From a phage: DNA of 64,000 nucleotides. The translations under genes and the position numbers were made by a program. The notes beneath the pieces are model-generated. The model saw nothing but the letters and a program-made list of their open reading frames with translations. It made no database searches and was not told the origin of the DNA. Shown here in pieces: positions 4,800 through 64,000 of this stretch. Each line of letters begins with the position of its first letter. Position 1 is the first letter of the stretch. The DNA lies in sequence record PV805632.1; one strand, 5' to 3'.

Positions 4800-5615
4800 A
4801 TGTACTCATCTATCGAACATCAGAAGCAACTCGAAGTACTATTCAATAAAAATCAGCTCCTGCCAAGGATGCGAAAAGAGTTCGAGGACTCCAAAGAAAT
4901 TGACTTTAAGGCATTCGCTGCCTATTTAGAAATTGATTATAAGCTGCTCATTGATGCAATGGTGCAGATTGCCCTACATAAACGTGCTGACATCCAGACT
5001 ATGATTGGCTCCCTCATGAGCCACTCAGATGATGCTCAGTACATCGCTGACTGTCTGTATAAGATGGCAGAGAATGACTGTTTCAACTATGACCCTACTA
5101 TCGACAAATTCGGTGTTATCTATGAGATTAGTGAAGATGTTCAGATGGAACTGGAAGCATTCCAGTATCCATTACCTATCGTAAGTGCTCCTAATCCTGT
5201 CAGAACTAACAGGGATACTGGTTATTACCAGACTAAAGGAAGCATCATCCTCAAGAAGAACCATCATGAGATGGATGTCTGCCTTGACCACATCAACCGT
5301 ATGAACAATCAACGTCTCTGTGTTAACTGGGACGTTGCTAACTATGTAAAAGACTCTCGTCCTAACATGGATAAACCCAAAGAGGGTGAAACCCGTCAGG
5401 ACTATGAGAAACGAGTTAAAGCCTTTGAGAAGTACAGTCGTACTGCTAAGGAAGTAATGGAGTTAGTGACTCAGGAAGGTAATAACTTCTCACTAGCACA
5501 TAAGTACGATAAGAGAGGGAGAACCTATGCCTGTGGTTACCACATTAACTATGCGGGAACCTCTTATAACAAAGCAGTCATAGAGTTCGCAGATAAAGAG
5601 CTTGTGGAGGACTAA
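4800..5615 (+). CDS. phage RNA polymerase II, small subunit (N4 gp15-like), 271 aa
   Basis: size and position match the N4 two-subunit T7-like RNAP II (about 269 + 404 aa); partner gene downstream carries the catalytic motifs. Confidence 0.6.
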   Translation: MYSSIEHQKQLEVLFNKNQLLPRMRKEFEDSKEIDFKAFAAYLEIDYKLLIDAMVQIALHKRADIQTMIGSLMSHSDDAQYIADCLYKMAENDCFNYDPTIDKFGVIYEISEDVQMELEAFQYPLPIVSAPNPVRTNRDTGYYQTKGSIILKKNHHEMDVCLDHINRMNNQRLCVNWDVANYVKDSRPNMDKPKEGETRQDYEKRVKAFEKYSRTAKEVMELVTQEGNNFSLAHKYDKRGRTYACGYHINYAGTSYNKAVIEFADKELVED

Positions 5616-6229
5616 TGAAAATGTGCAAAGACTGTGGAGAAGTTAAAGACCTCTCCCAGTTTGTACCTAAAGCATCCTGCACAGACGGCTACGAAGTACG
5701 CTGCCGTAGTTGCAGGGTACTCAAATACAATAAAGCTGATCCAGTTAAGATGTTTAAAAAGACATATATCTCTCAGGTGAACCACTCTGTAACGAGAGGT
5801 CATCCACCACCAGCTTATAGTCTGGAAGAGTTATATGACTGGCTGGATAACCAGCCAAACATTCATGAACTATGGGATGCTTACGTCACCAACAACTATG
5901 CTAAGGACTTAAAACCATCAATCGACCGCATAGATGACCTTAAGCCGTATACTCTTGATAACATTCAGTTAATGACGTGGAAAGAGAATAGGAACAAAGG
6001 TGCCAAGAGCAAAAAAGAAGGTGTTATTGGGAAGCATAAACCAGTGATTGCCTACCACTTGGATGGCTCAATCTATAAAGAATTTGTTAGTACCATTGAA
6101 GCTGCTAGACATGTGTCAGGCAGAGCATGGGGAATCACCACGGTAGCTGATGGCATACCAGTAAAGGATGGAAGGGGTAAGCTCTACAATCCTAAAACAT
6201 ACAAAGGCTACATCTGGGCCTGGAAATAA
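5615..6229 (+). CDS. HNH homing endonuclease with C-terminal IENR1/NUMOD-like DNA-binding motif (204 aa)
   Basis: N-terminal Cys cluster CKDCG...CRSC; HNH-like core IDRIDDLKPYTLDNIQLMTWKENRNKG; C-terminal KPV...F.S..EAARH..G.....GYIW motif typical of intron-encoded nuclease repeats. Confidence 0.6.
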   Translation: MKMCKDCGEVKDLSQFVPKASCTDGYEVRCRSCRVLKYNKADPVKMFKKTYISQVNHSVTRGHPPPAYSLEELYDWLDNQPNIHELWDAYVTNNYAKDLKPSIDRIDDLKPYTLDNIQLMTWKENRNKGAKSKKEGVIGKHKPVIAYHLDGSIYKEFVSTIEAARHVSGRAWGITTVADGIPVKDGRGKLYNPKTYKGYIWAWK

Positions 6230-7730: not shown

Positions 7731-7757
7731 CCACCCTCATGGGTGGCTTTCTTTTTA
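7730..7757 (+). terminator. intrinsic terminator GCCACCC-TCAT-GGGTGGC + TTTCTTTTTAT
   Basis: hairpin plus T-run; overlaps stop codon. Confidence 0.7.
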
Positions 7758-8742: not shown

Positions 8743-8931
8743 ATGTATAAAGAGATTGCATTCTTCTCGTTCTTGTTAGGTGGGTTAATTGGTGCAGGAA
8801 TTGTAGCTATTTCTAATAACTACTTTGGTTCTACTCCAAATTCTGTAACACAAACCCTCAAGCATGAATGTGAATTGAATATCCCTCGTAATCAAAGCTG
8901 CGTAATGCAGTTCGTACCGGAGAAGAAATGA
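8743..8931 (+). CDS. small membrane protein (62 aa)
   Basis: ORF track; N-terminal hydrophobic helix. Confidence 0.4.
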   Translation: MYKEIAFFSFLLGGLIGAGIVAISNNYFGSTPNSVTQTLKHECELNIPRNQSCVMQFVPEKK

Positions 8932-9188
8932 ATATTCATAACCTACGTTTGGTTGAAAGACTGTATGAAGAATACAACGACAACCGACAGCAATTGGCTA
9001 GTCTAAAAAAGTCCCCGCATATGGTGAAAGTAACCTTCTGTGATACAGATTTGGGGGTACAAGCTCGTGCAAGCATAATCCCTAAATTACTAGCATTTTA
9101 TCAAAAGAAAGTGGATGACTTAGAGAAACGCCTGAAGCATTTAGGAGTTGATCTATCTTTATTACCTGAAGAAGAGGAAGAAGAGTGA
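8928..9188 (+). CDS. hypothetical protein (86 aa)
   Basis: ORF track; overlap coupling. Confidence 0.45.
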   Translation: MNIHNLRLVERLYEEYNDNRQQLASLKKSPHMVKVTFCDTDLGVQARASIIPKLLAFYQKKVDDLEKRLKHLGVDLSLLPEEEEEE

Positions 9189-13118: not shown

Positions 13119-13139
13119 AATTACAGGTAGTAAATACTA

Positions 13140-15266: not shown

Positions 15267-15573
15267 TCCTGAAGTTATTCATAGTAAAACTGGTAAGGCT
15301 GTACCACTTAGTGATATTGCAGTTACTGGTGATATTGCTGCTTGCCCAGCTAATATCGCCTCCCTATGTATGTGCATTGCTGCACTAGCAGAAGAACGTA
15401 AATTATGGCTGGAACCAAGCAAAGAAATGGTACTGGCTGGCATGTCTGAACTGAATGCACTTCTGAAAGAAATGTATGACGAGGATGGACAATTAGTTGA
15501 GCCAACTGATGATCAGATTTCGGATGCTGTAGTATTCGTCCTTCAAGCAATGGCAGGTAAACGCAATGATTGA
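15259..15573 (+). CDS. hypothetical protein (104 aa)
   Basis: ORF track. Confidence 0.45.
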   Translation: MINPEVIHSKTGKAVPLSDIAVTGDIAACPANIASLCMCIAALAEERKLWLEPSKEMVLAGMSELNALLKEMYDEDGQLVEPTDDQISDAVVFVLQAMAGKRND

Positions 15574-15706: not shown

Positions 15707-18271
15707 ATGTTAGTCGCAGATACCAATCAATCAGCCACTTCAGCGACACTGGGTGGCAAAGAAGCAATCGCTTTTGCCATCTCAGATGACCCGGCATTCT
15801 TTCATGTATTAAGTACCTCCTTGTATAACAACCCTACTCTGGCAGTAGTCCGTGAGACTATCTGTAACAGTTGGGATGCTCATATTGAAGCAGGTAAGAC
15901 TGATACTCCTATCCGTATTACTATTGATACAGACAATTTTATTACCTTCCGTGACTTCGGTAATGGGATACCAGATGAACTCATTGGTTCCATTTACGGT
16001 GTCTATGGTGCATCTACCAAGAAGTCCAACAGTAGTGTTACTGGTGGCTTTGGTCTGGGATGTAAATCCCCATTCGCTTATACAGATAGTTTCCAGGTTA
16101 CTTCATGGAACCAGGGAAAGATGTCGGTATATAACGTAGCTAAGGCTGCAATTGAGAATGATGGTAAACCGGGTATTGTCCCTATTGTTACTGGTATTCC
16201 TACTGAAGAATCCGGTCTGGAAGTTAAATTCCAACTGGGTAAGCATGATGTAAATACCTTTGTACATTACATCACATCAATTGTATTTAACGGCGAGATT
16301 AAGGCTGAGCTTAATATTCCTAAACTTGTTCGTGAAGAAACGGGTAATAGTATTCAGCAAGGTAACTACACTCTACTGAATACTCTAGGTATGTCATTTG
16401 AACCTGGTTCATATGATATGTCTGATAGATGGTATCAAGGCTATATGGGTAACAGCACCATCTTTGTTCGCTACGGTAACGTAATGTACCCAATAGTATC
16501 TAGTCCGGCTAGTGAAGAGGCTGTAGGTCTTATTCTCAACTTCATGAATATCATTGGAGCTGATAATTTAGTAGTTCAGGCTGCACCGGATACCTTAGCT
16601 ATTGCCCCTAGTCGTGAAACTCTGTCTAACCAGAAGTTAACCGACGATGGTATTACTACTCTATGCGTAAATTTAGTAGATCGTATGGAGAAAGAAATTA
16701 AGGCTAAGATTCCTGAAGCTATTAAGCAGATTGAAGAATATGCCTCCAAATCTTCTACTCGCTACTGGGAATACCCATCTTTCATTCTTGCTGTTACAGA
16801 TGAGATTGTTAGACGCTATATGTCCTCTAGCTTGTGGGCTAAGCAACGTAAGCATCATATTAAGCACTGGCGTAATCTATCTAATAAGGCATTACTAGCT
16901 CGCCCTGAATATGCAGGTCTTAAAAGACTGTATGGTAAGGCTATGCGTGCTCTTAAGGATACCCGTGAAGATAGTACCAACCATTCTTTCCAGGATTTGG
17001 TATATCGTCATCTGCACCTACCTCAGCTTGCTGCTTTAAAAGCTACAGGTATTAAGTGGTCTGGTTACATAATGAACCAAGGTAACTGTGTTGACTTAGT
17101 GAAGGGTAAACTTACTGACTACTTTAAGATGGGTTATAACTCCCACCTAGGTATTGGTATTTTCACTACCAGGAACGTTGTAGTTACCCGACGTTTATCT
17201 GACTGTGCAGACTCTTTCTCATACTTCCCAGAGTACATCCAAGGTGACCTGGAGCGAACAGCTTTTGTTCACGTCGTTGGTCCTAAGAAAGGGGAAGCAG
17301 AGAAAGCTGTAGCTAAGTTCACTGCTATGGGTTATCGGGTTATTGACCTTACTCAATATAATGAGTGGGACAGGCCAACTAACTTCCGCAGGGAACAGGC
17401 TAAGATAGCTGCTGAGAAGCGGGCTAAGACAATAGCTGCCAATAAAACCAAAGCAGGTGGTAAAACTAATGCACTGGTTTCATTGAATGCAGTACTTGGT
17501 ACTTCCCCTGTACGAGATAAAAATGGAGATTTGGTATCTAAACCACACATTGACAAGGATTTTGCTGACCCAAGATTCCATGAGGAACCTAGATTCGTTG
17601 AGGTGGATCTGCCTAAGTACTACGTACCAGCCAGTCAGGTTGTTTCTGGTAGACCAGAAACTGCCAAGATTGGAACCATGTGGAAATGGTGGGAGTTGTC
17701 TGATGAGATGAAGGCAGAGACTGTTGTCTGTCGTAATCAAATCGAAGTTAACAAAGCCAAACGACGTGGTGCTATTCATATTGATGATGTTCGTTTTAAC
17801 GAACTGATGTCCGTCATTACCAGTAAAGGATTCAAGAAATATGCTACTGAACAGCGTATCGGTGTTCTTGAGTATCTTGATTTAAATGACAAAGAGTACT
17901 GTGAAATCCTCGACATTCTTGGACTAACATTCAAACCATTACAGAGTCTGGTTCTTAAACCAGAGTATGAATGGGCATGTAACTTCCTAAGAAATCATTC
18001 GAGTAACAAAGATAAACTGGTTGAGAAGGGCCTCATTAAGTCAGTAGATGACTTGGAACCATATGTAAAGATGGTTAATCCTCGTATGCATAAGCATTTC
18101 GAAGTACTTAACGAGTACAAAGGGTTATTTAGATATAGCTGGGCTAAAAATGACATCCTACAGACGCTAGACTTAGGTAGTTTAGTTAAACACCTCAAGA
18201 AGAATCCAGAGGATATCCCTGGGTTTAAGTCCCTCTACCGTAATCGTCTAAATAAACTGAAAGGTAAATAA
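15707..18271 (+). CDS. rIIA-like protein with N-terminal GHKL-type ATPase motifs (854 aa)
   Basis: NSWDAH...FRDFGNGIP...GGFGLGCKS resembles the GHKL Bergerat fold of rIIA; followed by an rIIB-like gene. Confidence 0.55.
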   Translation: MLVADTNQSATSATLGGKEAIAFAISDDPAFFHVLSTSLYNNPTLAVVRETICNSWDAHIEAGKTDTPIRITIDTDNFITFRDFGNGIPDELIGSIYGVYGASTKKSNSSVTGGFGLGCKSPFAYTDSFQVTSWNQGKMSVYNVAKAAIENDGKPGIVPIVTGIPTEESGLEVKFQLGKHDVNTFVHYITSIVFNGEIKAELNIPKLVREETGNSIQQGNYTLLNTLGMSFEPGSYDMSDRWYQGYMGNSTIFVRYGNVMYPIVSSPASEEAVGLILNFMNIIGADNLVVQAAPDTLAIAPSRETLSNQKLTDDGITTLCVNLVDRMEKEIKAKIPEAIKQIEEYASKSSTRYWEYPSFILAVTDEIVRRYMSSSLWAKQRKHHIKHWRNLSNKALLARPEYAGLKRLYGKAMRALKDTREDSTNHSFQDLVYRHLHLPQLAALKATGIKWSGYIMNQGNCVDLVKGKLTDYFKMGYNSHLGIGIFTTRNVVVTRRLSDCADSFSYFPEYIQGDLERTAFVHVVGPKKGEAEKAVAKFTAMGYRVIDLTQYNEWDRPTNFRREQAKIAAEKRAKTIAANKTKAGGKTNALVSLNAVLGTSPVRDKNGDLVSKPHIDKDFADPRFHEEPRFVEVDLPKYYVPASQVVSGRPETAKIGTMWKWWELSDEMKAETVVCRNQIEVNKAKRRGAIHIDDVRFNELMSVITSKGFKKYATEQRIGVLEYLDLNDKEYCEILDILGLTFKPLQSLVLKPEYEWACNFLRNHSSNKDKLVEKGLIKSVDDLEPYVKMVNPRMHKHFEVLNEYKGLFRYSWAKNDILQTLDLGSLVKHLKKNPEDIPGFKSLYRNRLNKLKGK

Positions 18272-18275
18272 TCTG

Positions 18276-20320
18276 ATGAAAATCGAACTGATTTCTATCA
18301 TCGCACTGGCAGTTGACAGTCGAAACCTCACACTGTGGAAGCCTGATGGCTCCACGGTTGTATACCCTCAGAGCGACCCACGGGTTGCTCGTATTGTATC
18401 TGAAGCACAGACTAAAGGTCTGGGCACTACCCAGGATCAAATAGAAGTAAACATTGCACCAGAAGTAGAACTTCGTACTGAATACCTGGAAGCAGAGAAG
18501 AACACCAACGGATTCGTTCGTTTCTTTAAGGTAGCTAAAGCTAAACTCAAAGAGTTCTTCGAAGATGGTACAGGTGTTTCACCAGCCCGTACCGTTTCAG
18601 ATATTAAGCTGGGTAATCCTACTAAGACACTAGTGTCTAAAGCTATGGATACTTTTCTGGCTGTCCAGGCTAATGAACCAGAAGTAACGGTAGCAGATGG
18701 TTACTACGACAAACGTGACAATCTGATGTGGGTTACCGGTTGGGATAAAGACCATAACCATCTTGCACTGGTTCGTTTTATTGACTACGTACTTTGTTGG
18801 AGTCATAAGCATACTGATCATATTCTTGCACAGGAGTGGCCTATTGCAATTCGTGCAGTATCTGATGATGAAATGGGTGAGTTTGCTAAACAAGCCCAAT
18901 ACATCAAAGGTGTACACATTGTATTTACCAACCGTGGAGAAACACCACTGCCTTACGTGGAAGTAGCTAAAACCTCGAACCAGGATAAGCTGGCTGCTGC
19001 TTCAGAGAAACTGGCTGCATTAGGTGCTATCAGTACTGATGACACTAACTTCCATACTGATGTGAAGGAAGATGAAGTGGTTGTTGCTGTTACCAACAAT
19101 GGGGTTATCCCTGGGGTTGAGAACCTGCAACGCCACCTGCGTCAGTCTGCCAAGCTGAAAGACTATAAGGGCTTTACTAAGTTCCTTGAGCGTCTGGCTC
19201 CGGTTATTAAAGACCGTCTGCACTCAGTGGAAGACCTGATGAAGTTCATGGAAACTGCTGAACTGCCTATCGCTGATGATGGCTCTATCCTGTTCCTGAA
19301 ACGACTTAAGTTCAGAGGTGAAGAAATGGTAAGCGTGTATTCGTTGACTGTCACTCAGGCAACATTCGTCAGTGGGTAGGTTGTAAAGTACAGGTACGAG
19401 AAGACCTGGTAGACCCTGACCGTCGTCAGGACTGCTCTAATGGTCTGCACGTAGCATCTATGAGCTATATCCGTACCTTCGGTGGTAACGTAACTATCCT
19501 TGGTAAAGTAGCACCAGAAGATGTATTTGCTGTTCCTGAGTACAACACTAATAAGATGCGTGTAGCTGCGTATCACATTATTGCTGAACTACCAGAAGAG
19601 GAACGTTGCAACGTTAACAATGGTATCTATCTGTCTAATACAGAAGTGGGTAAGAAGTTACTTAATGATGCCATCGTTGGGAACCATAGTTCACCTACCA
19701 CACTTGTTATGGTTGGTGGGCATCGTGGTACTAACCTCAAATACACCAATCTATCGTCTGGTTCTGTAGAACAATTCCGTACAGTTGCTAATAAAGAGGC
19801 ACTGAATATGGAAGAGTCACTGAATGAAGCTGTAGCTGCTGAACCAGTGAAGGCTACTGACCTTAAACCTATTGTTAATAAGGCTCCTACCGTGAAAGAA
19901 CAAATCCAGGAACTGATTAAAGAGTTCCTTAACGCTGCTACTCCAGAAGATAAATTAGCTGCTGCTGATTTACTTGTGGAAATGCGAGGTAAGGCTCGTA
20001 AGCCATGGGCTGCTTTAGGTGTTGGTTCCGATGTGGTATCTAAGATTGCTGATGTACGTAGTACTCGCATTCCTGCACCAAAAGCGAAACCAGTGAAGAA
20101 AACTAAGGTTCACCGTTCGGCTACTGCTACTAAGGTAGCACCGTCTGGTAAACACGCTGATAATCTGCGTAGCATCCTGAATGATACGTCCTACTCTGAC
20201 TATCAGAAAGGTCATGCTCTGCAAGACTATAAGCGTCATGCTAAGAAGTCATTCACTGCAATGGGTCTGACTGAAGAAGAAGCTAAGTTAGCTACCAAGC
20301 TGGTCAAGGCCGTTAAGTAA
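18276..20320 (+). CDS. rIIB-like protein, reading frame interrupted by an apparent -1 shift near 19320-19330
   Basis: downstream frame encodes DCHSG...CSNGLHVASMSYIRTFGG...APEDVFAVPEYNTNKMR, matching the T4 rIIB core (DCHSG...CSRGLHVCSKSYIRHFG) as recalled; ORF-track ORFs 18276..19379 and 19460..20320 are in frames 0 and 2; no RBS before ATG 19460. Confidence 0.6.
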
Positions 20321-20335
20321 TAGCCTGTTCAAATG

Positions 20336-20359
20336 CCCTCACTTATAATAAAGTGAGGG
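20336..20359 (+). terminator. hairpin CCCTCACTT-ATAATA-AAGTGAGGG, weak T-tract
   Basis: 9-bp perfect stem after the rIIB-like stop. Confidence 0.4.
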
Positions 20360-20382: not shown

Positions 20383-20778
20383 ATGAGTTCTGTATACAGA
20401 GTTAATCGCAAAGCAACTGATGAAGACATCATTCGTATGAATGCTGTTGGTCTGTCCCTCGCAACTATCGCTAAGACGTTGGGGGTTCACCCCACTACGG
20501 TTACTTTGCGATTGCGTTCTTTAAACATTGAACCAGCCGACACACGTCGGACGTTCATGGAGAATGTACTCCGTCCATTACCAACCCATGTGGTAGATTG
20601 GCTATCAGAGCAAGTTGGTCCTGCTTATGAGATTCGTTCATATGTAAGGGACTTGATTCTGGAGGCATATAATAATCGCCACCTTAACCAAGAGAGTGAG
20701 CATGACAAGTTCATCCGTTTGTACGCTGGAAAACACACGGCAATGGTTTCTAAAAGCCGTACCAAATCCGACGAGTAA
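20383..20778 (+). CDS. putative HTH DNA-binding protein (131 aa)
   Basis: ORF track 20353..20778; ATG 20383 with GAGGAAA RBS; helix-turn-helix-like GLSLATIAKTLGVHPTTV; C-terminus overlaps the putative MazG start. Confidence 0.4.
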   Translation: MSSVYRVNRKATDEDIIRMNAVGLSLATIAKTLGVHPTTVTLRLRSLNIEPADTRRTFMENVLRPLPTHVVDWLSEQVGPAYEIRSYVRDLILEAYNNRHLNQESEHDKFIRLYAGKHTAMVSKSRTKSDE

Positions 20779-21156
20779 GAATATTAGTACCCAGATTGGT
20801 TGCCATCTGGAAGAAGTAGAGGAAATGCTTCAGACCATTTATCCAATGGTAGTTACGATGCAGAACTACTACAACGTGCACAGGATGCCATTACAAATCT
20901 GGCAAACCATATGAAGCGTAAGGCCGATGCCTACCGTATTGACGTTAGTACTGACCTGCTGGATGCACTGGCAGACCAGATTGTTACAGCAACTGGCGTC
21001 GGTACTTTCCTTGGGATGAATGTCCCCGGAGCATTGGCTGAGGTCAATCGCTCAAACTATTCCAAGTTCGAAGATGGGGAACCTATCTTCAACGAGAACA
21101 AGAAAGTCATGAAGGGGAAAGATTATACTCCCCCTGATTTAAAACCTTACATCTAA
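20702..21156 (+). CDS. MazG-like NTP pyrophosphohydrolase, apparently split across two frames (break between about 20840 and 20912)
   Basis: frame 2 carries RQWF...HLEEVEEMLQ (EExxE motif), frame 1 carries IDVSTDLLDALADQ...AEVNRSNYSKF (second MazG motif and C-terminal box); ORF-track ORFs 20696..20914 and 20800..21156. Confidence 0.35.
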
Positions 21157-48352: not shown

Positions 48353-51003
48353 TTAAACAAGGTCTGTATTAAGAGTCATATCAGAGTAGCTGCCAATCAT
48401 GTTTAAAGACATGTCAGCTATATCCGAACCAGTCATAAGAGTACGTGAGAGGAAAGAATCCAACGACTCCATTGACACAAATTGCATAGGGTCAATTACA
48501 CCCTGCCCAGCAGTACCAAACATTTCTTCATACTGCTTATTGATTGCCATCATATCAGTATTGTACTGCTGCATTACATTCTCTGCTTTCTGAATAGTAG
48601 CAGCCGTAGATGCATTAATATACTGGCTAATACCATTACCTACTGAACTGGTAAGCTGCATAATGTTCTGAGCATTCATCATTTCACCGGCTAAGGTAGA
48701 TAAGGATGTACCAGTAGACATAGCAGTACCAACGTTCATAGCCACCATTGAAGCAATAGCAGCAATGATAAAACCTAGCTTATCACCAAACAGAGAAGTG
48801 GATACTTTAGTGACAATAGATATCATAATCATTGCAGCAATGGCGTTTGCTACAGCACCTACTATTACAGCAGCTAATCCAACAAAACCTAGCGATGCAC
48901 CAACTGCACCATAAGCCCCAAGAATACCTGCACCACCAGCACTACCAGCACCCATAGTAAATACGGATATAACGACAGCAACTACAACAACCACAATCTT
49001 AAAGGCAGAGGACTGATACCACTTTTTCTTAACCTTTTTATATGAGTTCATTACTAAGTAAGAGCAGGCAGTAGATAACTGAGTGCTACGAACTAGTGAC
49101 ATTGAACGATAGATGTTGGTGTGCAGGGGAATAATGAATCCACTCTCTTCTGCATCACCCATTGCTTCAGCAACATCAATATTTACTGACTTATTTTTAT
49201 ATACCTTGTTGCTATGATGAAGGCCCAATACCCTAAGTTTACGGTAGGTATTATTACCATCCTGCCAAAGCAACTCATATTCTTGCATAGTATAAAACGT
49301 AGGGGTAACTTCCAGCTTTTTGCTAGCACCAGCACGCATGTTCTTACGGGTAAGGGTTATATCCCCTGCATATCTGGCTCGAAGTTGTCCTTGTTTAGCA
49401 CCAGCCCATGCTTCACCGGAATGGGTAGTTTCAAATACGTAGTTCCAACTAATAGTCATATCATACTTATAATGCTTACTACTATGCACCCTAAACTCCC
49501 GCTTAGGTATAACAGGGTATTCTGGCAGAGGTGGAGGTGTTCCAACAATTTGACCTTCCTGCCTGTTCCACCATTCCTCATATGCATCAACTGCATCATT
49601 TGCTGCCTGATAACCTGCAATCACTGCTTCCAGTGTAGGGTAGGTTGGATCAGGTGGAAATGCTTCAGTAGCCATCTGAAAGAAACGGTAGATGTATTCC
49701 TTAGCAGTATCTTCTGGAGTATTAAGAGATACACCGAATGTGCCATAGATGTATTGAATATCGCCTATGTCATCATTCTTCTTAAGCTCAGTCACTACTT
49801 TATCTAGCTTACCACCAGTAGCTTTATAGAGTGCCTTCTTACAGTGGGGGTAGATTGTGTCATTCTCTACCCATTGCTTATCATTCCTGATTGGAATAAA
49901 TGGATAGAATCGGTTATCAGTAGCCTCAGTTTCAAACAGTGAATCGAGTGTAGCGTTACCTGAGTTCTTCTTATAGATAAGCATCTTAGGTGTACCAACA
50001 GCAGTCATCTCAGTGTCAGTACGAGTAGTCTGGGATGAGTACTTACGAACCAGTGTCTCTGTGGTCGTGGTGATTGTATCTGTGCGAGTAACACCACCAC
50101 CTAAATTAACTACATTAGTGGTTACAGTAGTACTGGATTGAACCTCACCGAACTTTCTATGAGTCATTACCCTATCAGATACAACTACAGTTACATCATC
50201 AGGCTTCTCAGTGAATCCTCTACGGTAAACCTTAACGTAAGAGTTCCAGTTATCCACACTTGGTACAGTAACAGTACTGTCTTCATATGGTCTACCATCA
50301 GAGTAAACAGAATGAATCTGTATAGTCTTAGTAAGATTGGTTGTGTTAGCCGTCGTATTACTTGAGATGGTAGTCCATAACAGAGTAGACGGTAAGTCAT
50401 TTTCGCTGTTATAGACAGTAGTCGGACCTACTACCGGTGGATTGGTAGCCGGGGACTTATAGAACGTGTAATCAGCATAGAGATACAAAGCACCTGGTTC
50501 AAAGTTAGTAGGTGTGAATGTAATGGGGGAACTCCATCTAAGGAGGTCATAGTGATTACATTAGTATCTTCATCAATGTCTATGTCGAATCGTTCCATGA
50601 TTCGACTTGGGGCATTCTCATAAAGATACTGATCACACCATTGCTCAAAGTCAGCAAAGCCAATCTCTGCTGCCTGAACATAGACAGATTCTCCAGCAGG
50701 TGGGGTAATTTGATCCTCTATAACAGTAGGGTCAATCTTAGCCAGTACACCTAACGAAGAACCTGCCATACCAACTTCTGAATCATAGTGATTCTTACTC
50801 CAGCTAGAAAACAGTCGCATACGTATACCAGGCCCCTTCAGATAACTATCAGAGATAGTGTCTGCCATAGTGAATCCTGTATCAGCAACAATCTTACCGA
50901 TGACTACAGTCTTCATATAGTTTGGACGCTTGTGTATATCCCCTGCCATGTTATAGACAGAGGATGCTACGTATACTTTGGTCTTACTACTGAATAAGCC
51001 CAT
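48353..51003 (-). CDS. large virion protein with C-terminal transmembrane segments, apparently one gene split by a -1 frame break at a C5 run near 50510-50525
   Basis: ORF 50431..51003 and ORF 48353..50488 overlap by 58 nt; downstream ORF has only a TTG start with poor RBS, its frame is open and well codon-adapted upstream of that TTG, and the frames meet at GGAGTTCCCCCATT. Confidence 0.45.
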
Positions 51004-62197: not shown

Positions 62198-64000
62198 CTA
62201 CCTGATAATGAACTTACCGAGGCTAATATCATTTATCAAAGTTGCTACTATGTTTGCCAGTTGGGTGGTTGTTAACGTGTTCACATCACCACCACGCAAC
62301 TGTCCGGCGTTGGTGAACGGGAACTGCTGAGGCTGAGCGCTATTGTAGAACTGGTTACCCTCTTCATACCGAGAAGACGGCGTAGAAGTGTAAAGGATTC
62401 CTTTAGTAGTCGCAGGAACAGAACAATTCACGATGTTTACATGACCAGCGATGCCAACGCACTCGATAGGGCGATCAACAGTACCAAACGGTTGAACACC
62501 AACCAGGCGATGCACGTTCAAGCTCTGAGCTGCCTGCGCGTACAGATAAGAACTAGGCTGCCCGTTAACACCTCTGATGTTCCAGTTATCCACTTCAATA
62601 TGACGGGCATTATGAATCTGACAGATTGCTTGACCGTCTGCATCAGGAAATGCGCCAACAATACGCACGTTCTTCATAGTGATGTCGGAAGTAGCTGTTG
62701 CGTTCAACCCGCAGTTAATCATAACAGCTTTAGACCCAGATTGTGTGCAGTGGATTGTTAACCCATCGAATTCAATATCACCTAGATTTACCGTGTGAGA
62801 GGATCCATCCTTACGCAAAAAGAATACAGCCCAATCTGTGTGACCTGTTATTAAGATATTACTAAATCGCAGGCGTGTGCAGACTACCGGATAATATCGA
62901 CAGAGGATTGGCTGTGAACAATTCTTGATTGTGATGTTGTCATACGTGACATCACTGGAACCCTCAATCGCAATACCCGCATTACATGCTTCAATGTAAG
63001 CACCGGTCACACTTCCGTTGGTGAAGTTTGCGCGGATGCCATGCGATTCACAGTTCTTAATTGTTACGTTGCTAATGTTGACGCGAGTAATTGCAGTACC
63101 ATTACCGCCGCCAACACCAGTAACCAAATCGTCAGACTGAAGACGCAAACCGTTACCGCCGGATCCATTAATACTAATATCATGAATCATCACATTAAGC
63201 GTGCGACCGGGACGTGTTGAAGTCATAAACACAGAAGATGCCCATGTGTCTCTAGTACGGATATGATGTATATGTGCTTCTGTTGCGTTCCCAACAATAA
63301 TCGCCATACCCTGACGGTTGCTGCCGTCCGGCTGTTGGATTTGTCCACGCCCACAATCGTGAGAATACAGGTTGTTTGCAAGCGTCCATCTACCATAATC
63401 CATTGTTACGTTGCTATTCCATGCCCCCTGCAATTCACACCCTGAAAGCTCAAGCGTACCAGCAGATTGCATAGCCAACCCAACGCCAGGGTCAAATGAC
63501 GCATCCTGTCGGTAGAAATCAAAAAGGAAGTTACCGACAATGCGGATGTCATAAGGGGTATAGTCATATTCATTGTTTGTATCATTCCATGTTCTCGGTG
63601 AACGCAGCCAGAACTGACGCGAATCTACCGTCACTTTCGGTAATAGCGGTTTGAGGTGAATATCCCCCTGGATGGTGAATATACCCTCAACTGTAACCGG
63701 TGAATAGCCAATGTAAATATTACCTGCCTTTGGTAGTAGGCGCGAAAGCTGCGCATCGTTCTGCGCAATCTTCCAGCCAGTGATCACTTCGTTGAAGAAC
63801 GAAGCCGGATATAGCTCGTGAGCGCCGTTAATGACGGTCTGGTCGAAACTGGTGACTGTCACAGATGACGTAAGCGCGGAACCCAACATCATCAGATTGC
63901 CACTCACCCTGACAAACAGTACTCCTGACGGAATAACATCACCGACAGACAACGAACGGTTATTTTCTGTTGGGAAGCACGAACCACCGTAAAAACCTGA
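62198..64000 (-). CDS. tail spike/fibre with right-handed beta-helix repeats; 5' end beyond the window
   Basis: repeated NVTIKNC / ITIKNCS segments; frame stays open on the - strand to position 64000, so the N-terminus is outside the window. Confidence 0.5.
   Translation of the reverse strand, partial: SGFYGGSCFPTENNRSLSVGDVIPSGVLFVRVSGNLMMLGSALTSSVTVTSFDQTVINGAHELYPASFFNEVITGWKIAQNDAQLSRLLPKAGNIYIGYSPVTVEGIFTIQGDIHLKPLLPKVTVDSRQFWLRSPRTWNDTNNEYDYTPYDIRIVGNFLFDFYRQDASFDPGVGLAMQSAGTLELSGCELQGAWNSNVTMDYGRWTLANNLYSHDCGRGQIQQPDGSNRQGMAIIVGNATEAHIHHIRTRDTWASSVFMTSTRPGRTLNVMIHDISINGSGGNGLRLQSDDLVTGVGGGNGTAITRVNISNVTIKNCESHGIRANFTNGSVTGAYIEACNAGIAIEGSSDVTYDNITIKNCSQPILCRYYPVVCTRLRFSNILITGHTDWAVFFLRKDGSSHTVNLGDIEFDGLTIHCTQSGSKAVMINCGLNATATSDITMKNVRIVGAFPDADGQAICQIHNARHIEVDNWNIRGVNGQPSSYLYAQAAQSLNVHRLVGVQPFGTVDRPIECVGIAGHVNIVNCSVPATTKGILYTSTPSSRYEEGNQFYNSAQPQQFPFTNAGQLRGGDVNTLTTTQLANIVATLINDISLGKFIIR

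Follow-up and report, generated by a model that had tools for sequence, protein, structure and literature searches.

Does a phage in which the rIIB-like gene is interrupted by a single missing nucleotide really lack an intact RIIB protein, or does the interruption exist only in its sequence record? The question is raised by a 64,000-nucleotide stretch of phage DNA (PV805632.1; here termed the window), in which the reading frame of an rIIB-like gene shifts by -1 about halfway through the gene. A frame break of this kind could represent a consensus error, a mutation, a pseudogene, a recoding signal or a gene divided in two, and these readings were weighed by comparing the locus, and the remainder of the window, with related phages.

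The rIIB-like gene and its frame break

The window was found to be collinear with the genome of Escherichia phage vB_EcoP_G7C (G7C) from base 7 to base 64000 (G7C 7..65667; whole-window blastn). Megablast searches with the rIIB locus and with 24 kb around it matched 56 phage records, all Gamaleyavirus. The nearest was G7C with 95-96% identity, and none of the 56 was closer. Judged by this similarity the window represents the left-hand 64 kb of a genome from Gamaleyavirus (G7C-like, N4-type Schitoviridae). No entry in the gene catalogue corresponded to the exact products of the 367-aa ORF, the 286-aa ORF or the intact rIIA.

The interrupted gene starts 4 nt after the end of an intact rIIA-like gene (Table 1). 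The latter matched phrog_2979 RIIA with an E-value of 4e-290 in a PHROG profile search, and a GHKL-type ATPase domain (Pfam HATPase_c_3) was found at its N-terminus, in residues 47-155. Both halves of the interrupted gene matched adjoining stretches of phrog_2886 "RIIB lysis inhibitor", which has 552 positions, with E-values of 2e-92 for the 5' half and 2e-117 for the 3' half. The first 100 aa past the break also matched four other RIIB PHROGs (phrog_609, 11221, 36818, and 3803) and, by tblastn, approximately 2550 phage records, T4 rIIB among them (38.9% identity, E 1e-11). No match to the gene was found in local copies of Pfam-A or NCBIfam; PF26926 is carried by rIIB homologues. Membership of the rIIB family is therefore given both by profile and by a core shared with T4, and sequence comparison confirms the gene as rIIB-like and as the counterpart of the 681-aa G7C gp34. 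The original prediction had identified the gene as rIIB-like, which the phrog_2886 match and the rIIA-like neighbor (phrog_2979) bear out, and had labeled the segment past the break a conserved rIIB core, which the T4 match shows to be correct.

The gene occupies the same place as gp34 of G7C (HQ259105, AEL79644) and of Gamaleyavirus/N4, i.e., after the rIIA-like gp33 and before a stem-loop and gp35. The stem-loop past the rIIB stop codon is likely to be the end of the rIIA-rIIB transcription unit, a function suggested by its sequence and position. The likeness to T4 rIIB extends over an aligned core of approximately 90 residues, and in both phages the gene is paired with a rIIA carrying a GHKL ATPase-like domain. 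Compared to T4 rIIB, the N4-type protein has in addition an N-terminal part of approximately 350 residues and a C-terminal tail, both specific to N4-like phages, and it is about twice as long as the product of the 939-nt rIIB gene of T6 (PMC10312443).

Table 1. Positions in the window of the rIIA-rIIB locus, the frame break and two further interrupted genes.
Feature	Position	Strand	Basis
rIIA-like gene, 854 aa, intact	15707..18271	+	ORF; phrog_2979; equivalent of G7C gp33
rIIB-like gene, 5' part: 367-aa ORF of 350 authentic and 17 out-of-frame residues (MVSVYSLTVTQATFVSG), then TAG	18276..19379	+	ORF; phrog_2886 positions 1-259
rIIB-like gene, 3' part: -1 frame, 332 codons, conserved rIIB core (VFVDCHSG...SYIRTFGG)	19322..20320	+	phrog_2886 positions 246-552; T4 rIIB match
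Frame-break site: AAA, where G7C, Bas96 and one contig from IMG/VR or JGI have AAAA	19324..19326	+	DNA alignments; which A is lost is indistinguishable
Stem-loop (CCCTCAC...GTGAGGG) past the rIIB stop	20336..20359	+	Same position as the G7C stem_loop annotated at 20939..20962
MazG-like nucleotide pyrophosphohydrolase (G7C gp36), split into ORFs 20696..20914 and 20800..21156	20696..21156	+	1-nt deletion at 20845-20846
gp53 homologue, split into ORFs 50431..51003 (190 aa) and 48353..50488 (711 aa)	48353..51003	-	1-nt deletion at 50532

Frame 0 of the gene is open from the ATG at 18276 to a TAG at 19377-19379. Frame 2 is closed by a TGA at 19319-19321 and from there open to the TAA at 20318-20320, reading RNGKRVFVDCHSGNIRQW...CSNGLHVASMSYIRTFGG (also written RNGKRVFVDCHSGNIRQWVGCKVQVREDLVDPDRRQDCSNGLHVASMSYIRTFGG...), which gives the two frames a shared stretch of 58 nt (19322-19379). 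From 19322 to 19459, ATG, GTG, and TTG are all absent from frame 2. Its first start codon is the ATG at 19460, and direct reading revealed no Shine-Dalgarno-like motif just before it. The window consequently holds no single uninterrupted rIIB ORF; the gene is split at 19324-19326. The authentic residues end at E350, in register with G7C gp34 as far as ...FRGEE, and are followed by the 17 out-of-frame residues. As written, the truncated product would have a size of roughly 41 kDa and the C-terminus ...RGEEMVSVYSLTVTQATFVSG, and the peptide on the truncation side would read ...FRGEEMVSVYSLTVTQATFVSG. When one A was added, a 2046-nt ORF of 681 aa resulted, 98% identical to the G7C gp34 protein and with the frame-restored junction ...FRGEENGKR....

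The rIIB gene is broken by one missing A in the given sequence. On the homologies above, the break falls between an N-terminal half found only in N4-type phages and the core that all rIIB families share, and the core could not be translated as written. Most of this had been predicted from the letters of the window: the position of the break and its -1 direction agree with the reading frames and with the DNA alignment, 348 codons do precede GAAGAA, the core was rightly said to have no start codon of its own (none before 19460 in frame 2), and one extra A in the AAA run does mend the gene.

Conservation of the locus in related phages

An alignment to related phages, which had been proposed as a means to place the break, was made with five relatives and located it to the A-run at 19324-19326. 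The window has GAAGAAATGG (aligned as GAAGA-AATGG) opposite GAAGAAAATGG in both G7C and Bas96, while the other three relatives have different letters at this site and keep the frame. The rIIB site of a metagenomic contig also has the run of four, reading GAAGAAAATGG. The window gene has 95.2% DNA identity to G7C gp34, and the 98% identity at the protein level is obtained once one A is added. Without that A from the A4 run the window gene terminates shortly past its 350 authentic residues, whereas its relatives encode 673-686 aa without a break.

The 461 nt of the window between 19100 and 19560 correspond to 462 nt in 54 of the 56 related records and to 465 nt in the remaining two, both IME11 records. 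Every annotated record among the 56 has one rIIB CDS under the match, and a single ORF, 2037-2052 nt in length, was present in each of five relative loci that were inspected. Where the relatives' records show a second "hypothetical protein", it is a small downstream gene. The best 120 protein clusters from NCBI, ENA, JGI, and Logan were all 673-686 aa long with 100% coverage. Relatives encoding rIIB as two separate proteins split at this point, which would have spoken for a genuine arrangement, are thus not found among the 56 records or the best 120 clusters. The short (A3) allele had no match in IMG/VR, where the intact allele had two. A scan of JGI metagenome contigs that accepted both alleles returned one contig only, carrying the intact allele, and none with the short one.

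The sequence past the break was found to be as well preserved as that before it. Compared to G7C, the ratio of synonymous to nonsynonymous codon differences is 45:10 up to the break and, in the restored frame, 32:7 beyond it, and the 332 codons past the break contain no stop. An established pseudogene can be rejected, as purifying selection is equal on both sides of the break and has acted on the downstream half over practically the entire divergence from G7C. The lack of decay implies that the lesion is either an artefact or extremely recent.

Further interrupted genes in the same sequence

We listed all indels between the window and G7C from a full DNA comparison. Coding indels were multiples of three or compensated within a few bases, with the exception of those in rIIB, gp36, and gp53. 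Each of these three genes has lost one base from a short run: A4 to A3 at 19324-19326 in rIIB, A3 to A2 at 20845-20846 in gp36, and C2 to C1 at 50532 in gp53. The remaining large genes of the window are intact, including the 3759-codon ORF of the virion RNA polymerase.

The two fragments of the MazG-like gp36 homologue match phrog_671 at positions 532-580 and 578-657, and addition of one A gives a 151-aa ORF near-identical to G7C gp36. Likewise, the gp53 fragments match phrog_2220 at positions 1-147 and 161-847, and one added base gives an 883-aa ORF near-identical to the G7C protein. In the window gp53 is cut at codon 157. The extra base is kept in 25 of 25 relatives among the matches listed (552 nt vs. 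551 in the window). The gp53 protein of N4 is the virion tail plug, which was seen by mass spectrometry and modeled in a cryo-EM map. The knot with which it seals the tube is formed within one chain, by residues 29-56 together with 670-716 (PMC13434306). By extrapolation from the N4 structure, gp53 would be essential in G7C-like phages as well.

At two intergenic T-runs that look like terminator tails, at 7752 and at 13119, the window has one T fewer than G7C. All five single-base differences within runs relative to G7C are losses in the window. The break sites of rIIB and gp36 share the local context AAATGGTA. It was considered as a systematic error motif and rejected, since other copies at 15425 and 51040 are unaltered.

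Several other features of the window were observed in the course of the comparison. In the gp53 coding strand, a CCC CCA run begins one codon (GTT) past the lesion. A -1 slip in the P-site at CCC CCA would bring the frame back and alter nothing beyond GS to VP, although this is speculative. The homologues of gp35 and gp36 (20383-20778 and 20702-20914) overlap by approximately 77 nt in different frames and are annotated in the same way in G7C and Bas96; the overlap is unusually long for genes and conserved. A poly-C near the left genome end, at 39-52, is C14 in the window and C7 in G7C, which may reflect either natural length variation of the terminal-repeat region or a problem of homopolymer calling.

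Differences in gene content were also found. The HNH homing-endonuclease genes gp2.1, gp24.1, gp41.1, and gp47.1 of G7C are absent from the window and their flanks are joined directly, at approximately 1337/1349, 10784/10801, 26176/26194, and 32221. A further G7C HNH gene, gp15.1, which lies between the genes for the two subunits of the middle RNA polymerase, is replaced in the window by an unrelated 204-aa ORF (5615-6229). An additional 86-aa ORF that G7C does not have is located at 8928-9188, between the homologues of gp17.1 and gp17.2, and the gene downstream of it has a GTG start that lies within a GTGA start/stop overlap. An apparent 1-nt deletion at 9186, at the gp17.1/gp17.2 junction, was examined as another frame break and rejected, as it is accounted for by the extra ORF together with the GTGA overlap.

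Origin of the break and its significance

The break in rIIB is probably an indel error of the consensus. The locus would then be the ordinary rIIA-rIIB pair of a G7C-like phage, from which one base of an A4 run is missing in the record. The missing A would reflect an under-called short homopolymer or an assembly that was polished poorly, not the real phage, which would make one 681-aa rIIB-like protein, as do all its relatives. The argument depends mainly on two points: a phage whose tail-plug gene is split would hardly be viable, and the differences are uniformly losses from runs. Since a phage with its tail plug cut at codon 157 is unlikely to form plaques, at least the gp53 lesion is probably a consensus error. 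In a sequence that carries such errors, the rIIB lesion, which is of the same type, unique and unaccompanied by decay, is best explained likewise. What characterizes an error of this sort was indeed found, i.e., a single-base change in run length unique to this sequence, with other frame-breaking single-base indels in conserved genes of the same assembly, one of them the tail plug.

Other considerations count against an error. Runs as short as A4, A3, and C2 are not the commonest place of classical homopolymer errors, and the context shared by the rIIB and gp36 sites is not a systematic error motif. In addition, rIIB and the MazG-like gene are of the accessory kind that a phage can lose.

If the deletion were real, it would be a recent one, natural or arisen in the laboratory, and the stock would be rIIB-null and make the 350-residue, N4-type-specific N-terminal part followed by 17 junk residues. 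We consider this main rival biologically reasonable and yet unlikely. Loss of rIIB would on this account be tolerated, on a host without RexAB-like exclusion, or selected, on a host with a defence that senses RIIB. There are precedents for both. T4 rIIB serves as a protector from prophage-induced early lysis and as counter-defence against lambda RexAB. On hosts that lack RexAB, T4 can do without rII, and the rIIAB locus of N4-type phages is homologous (PMC8594841); the core after the break matches T4 rIIB. T6 escapers of a CARD/gasdermin system are rIIB frameshift or nonsense mutants (PMC10312443). The undecayed downstream half also fits a very recent event. However, the break was found in 0 of 56 related records and in 0 of the best 120 protein clusters, indicating that rIIB is strongly maintained in the lineage, and the A3 allele was encountered neither in IMG/VR nor in JGI contigs. 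Moreover, the sequence carries two more single-base breaks, one of them in the tail plug, and these are either indel errors or would require three simultaneous nulls in a viable phage. The resemblance to frameshift mutants of T-even rIIB, i.e., the classical rII mutants and the T6 CARD/gasdermin escapers (PMC10312443), lies in the conserved RIIB part being lost through a single-base frameshift; the T-even mutants were obtained by selection and verified by experiment, whereas the window allele is known from one sequence that bears two other breaks. A more specific version, in which A3 would be the first rIIB-null allele of natural origin in N4-type phages, maybe selected by a host defence that senses RIIB as CARD/gasdermin systems do in T6, appears more doubtful still and draws on analogy to the T-even phages.

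A programmed recoding event, in which either the ribosome shifts by -1 or transcription slips at GAAGAAATGG, would give full-length rIIB from the sequence as written, and its only support is the 58-nt overlap of the frames and the -1 direction of the required shift. It is very improbable. Direct reading of 19319-19379 revealed no X XXY YYZ heptamer in frame 0 of the overlap, whose sole triplet runs are AAA-TGG and GGG-TAG. At GAA-GAA-A a -1 slip would make the tRNA-Glu (GAA) re-pair with AGA. A stimulatory structure was not found, the minimum free energy of the 94 nt at 19327-19420 being -19.8 kcal/mol, compared with -23.4 kcal/mol on average for shuffled copies (z +1.17). The two-frame arrangement is conserved in no relative, all of which have a single frame. 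Transcriptional slippage occurs on long A or T homopolymers, typically of 6-9 or more, and the run of A3 is far below such a tract. A literature search for Gamaleyavirus and frameshift found nothing.

Finally, a genuinely split gene, in which the N-terminal domain and the C-terminal rIIB core would each be a functional protein in its own right, is hardly credible: both frames are long and open and the ATG at 19460 sits 80 nt beyond the upstream stop, but a start there lacks a preceding Shine-Dalgarno motif and loses approximately 45 of the most-conserved core residues (VFVDCHSGNIRQW...NGLHVAS), where the T4 rIIB alignment runs from residue 6 of the segment, and no relative is split. The original prediction had left a sequencing error, a pseudogene and slippage side by side. 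Of these the error is favored, with two more broken genes in the same sequence, while slippage and an established pseudogene are rejected.

Given that a consensus error is the preferred reading, the record most likely holds at least three of them, in rIIB, in the MazG-like pyrophosphohydrolase and in the tail plug gp53. In an annotation they would appear as three spurious pseudogenes or as six short CDSs that do not exist, and re-polishing is called for before the record is put to comparative or structural use. The phage itself most probably does not have this break, and the rIIB-like gene of N4-type phages is already well known, if functionally obscure. The biological weight of the finding is therefore small, and its value lies in annotation quality, with three likely errors flagged.

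No function has been demonstrated for rIIAB in N4-like phages (PMC8594841); protection from RexAB exclusion and an effect on lysis timing are known for T-even phages only (PMC8594841; PMC10312443). Should the A3 allele nevertheless turn out to be real, rIIB would be dispensable in Gamaleyavirus, and a trade-off between counter-defence and the triggering of defence, as in T-even phages, would extend to this genus. The phage would then provide a natural knock-out with which to ask what role rIIAB plays in N4-like phages.
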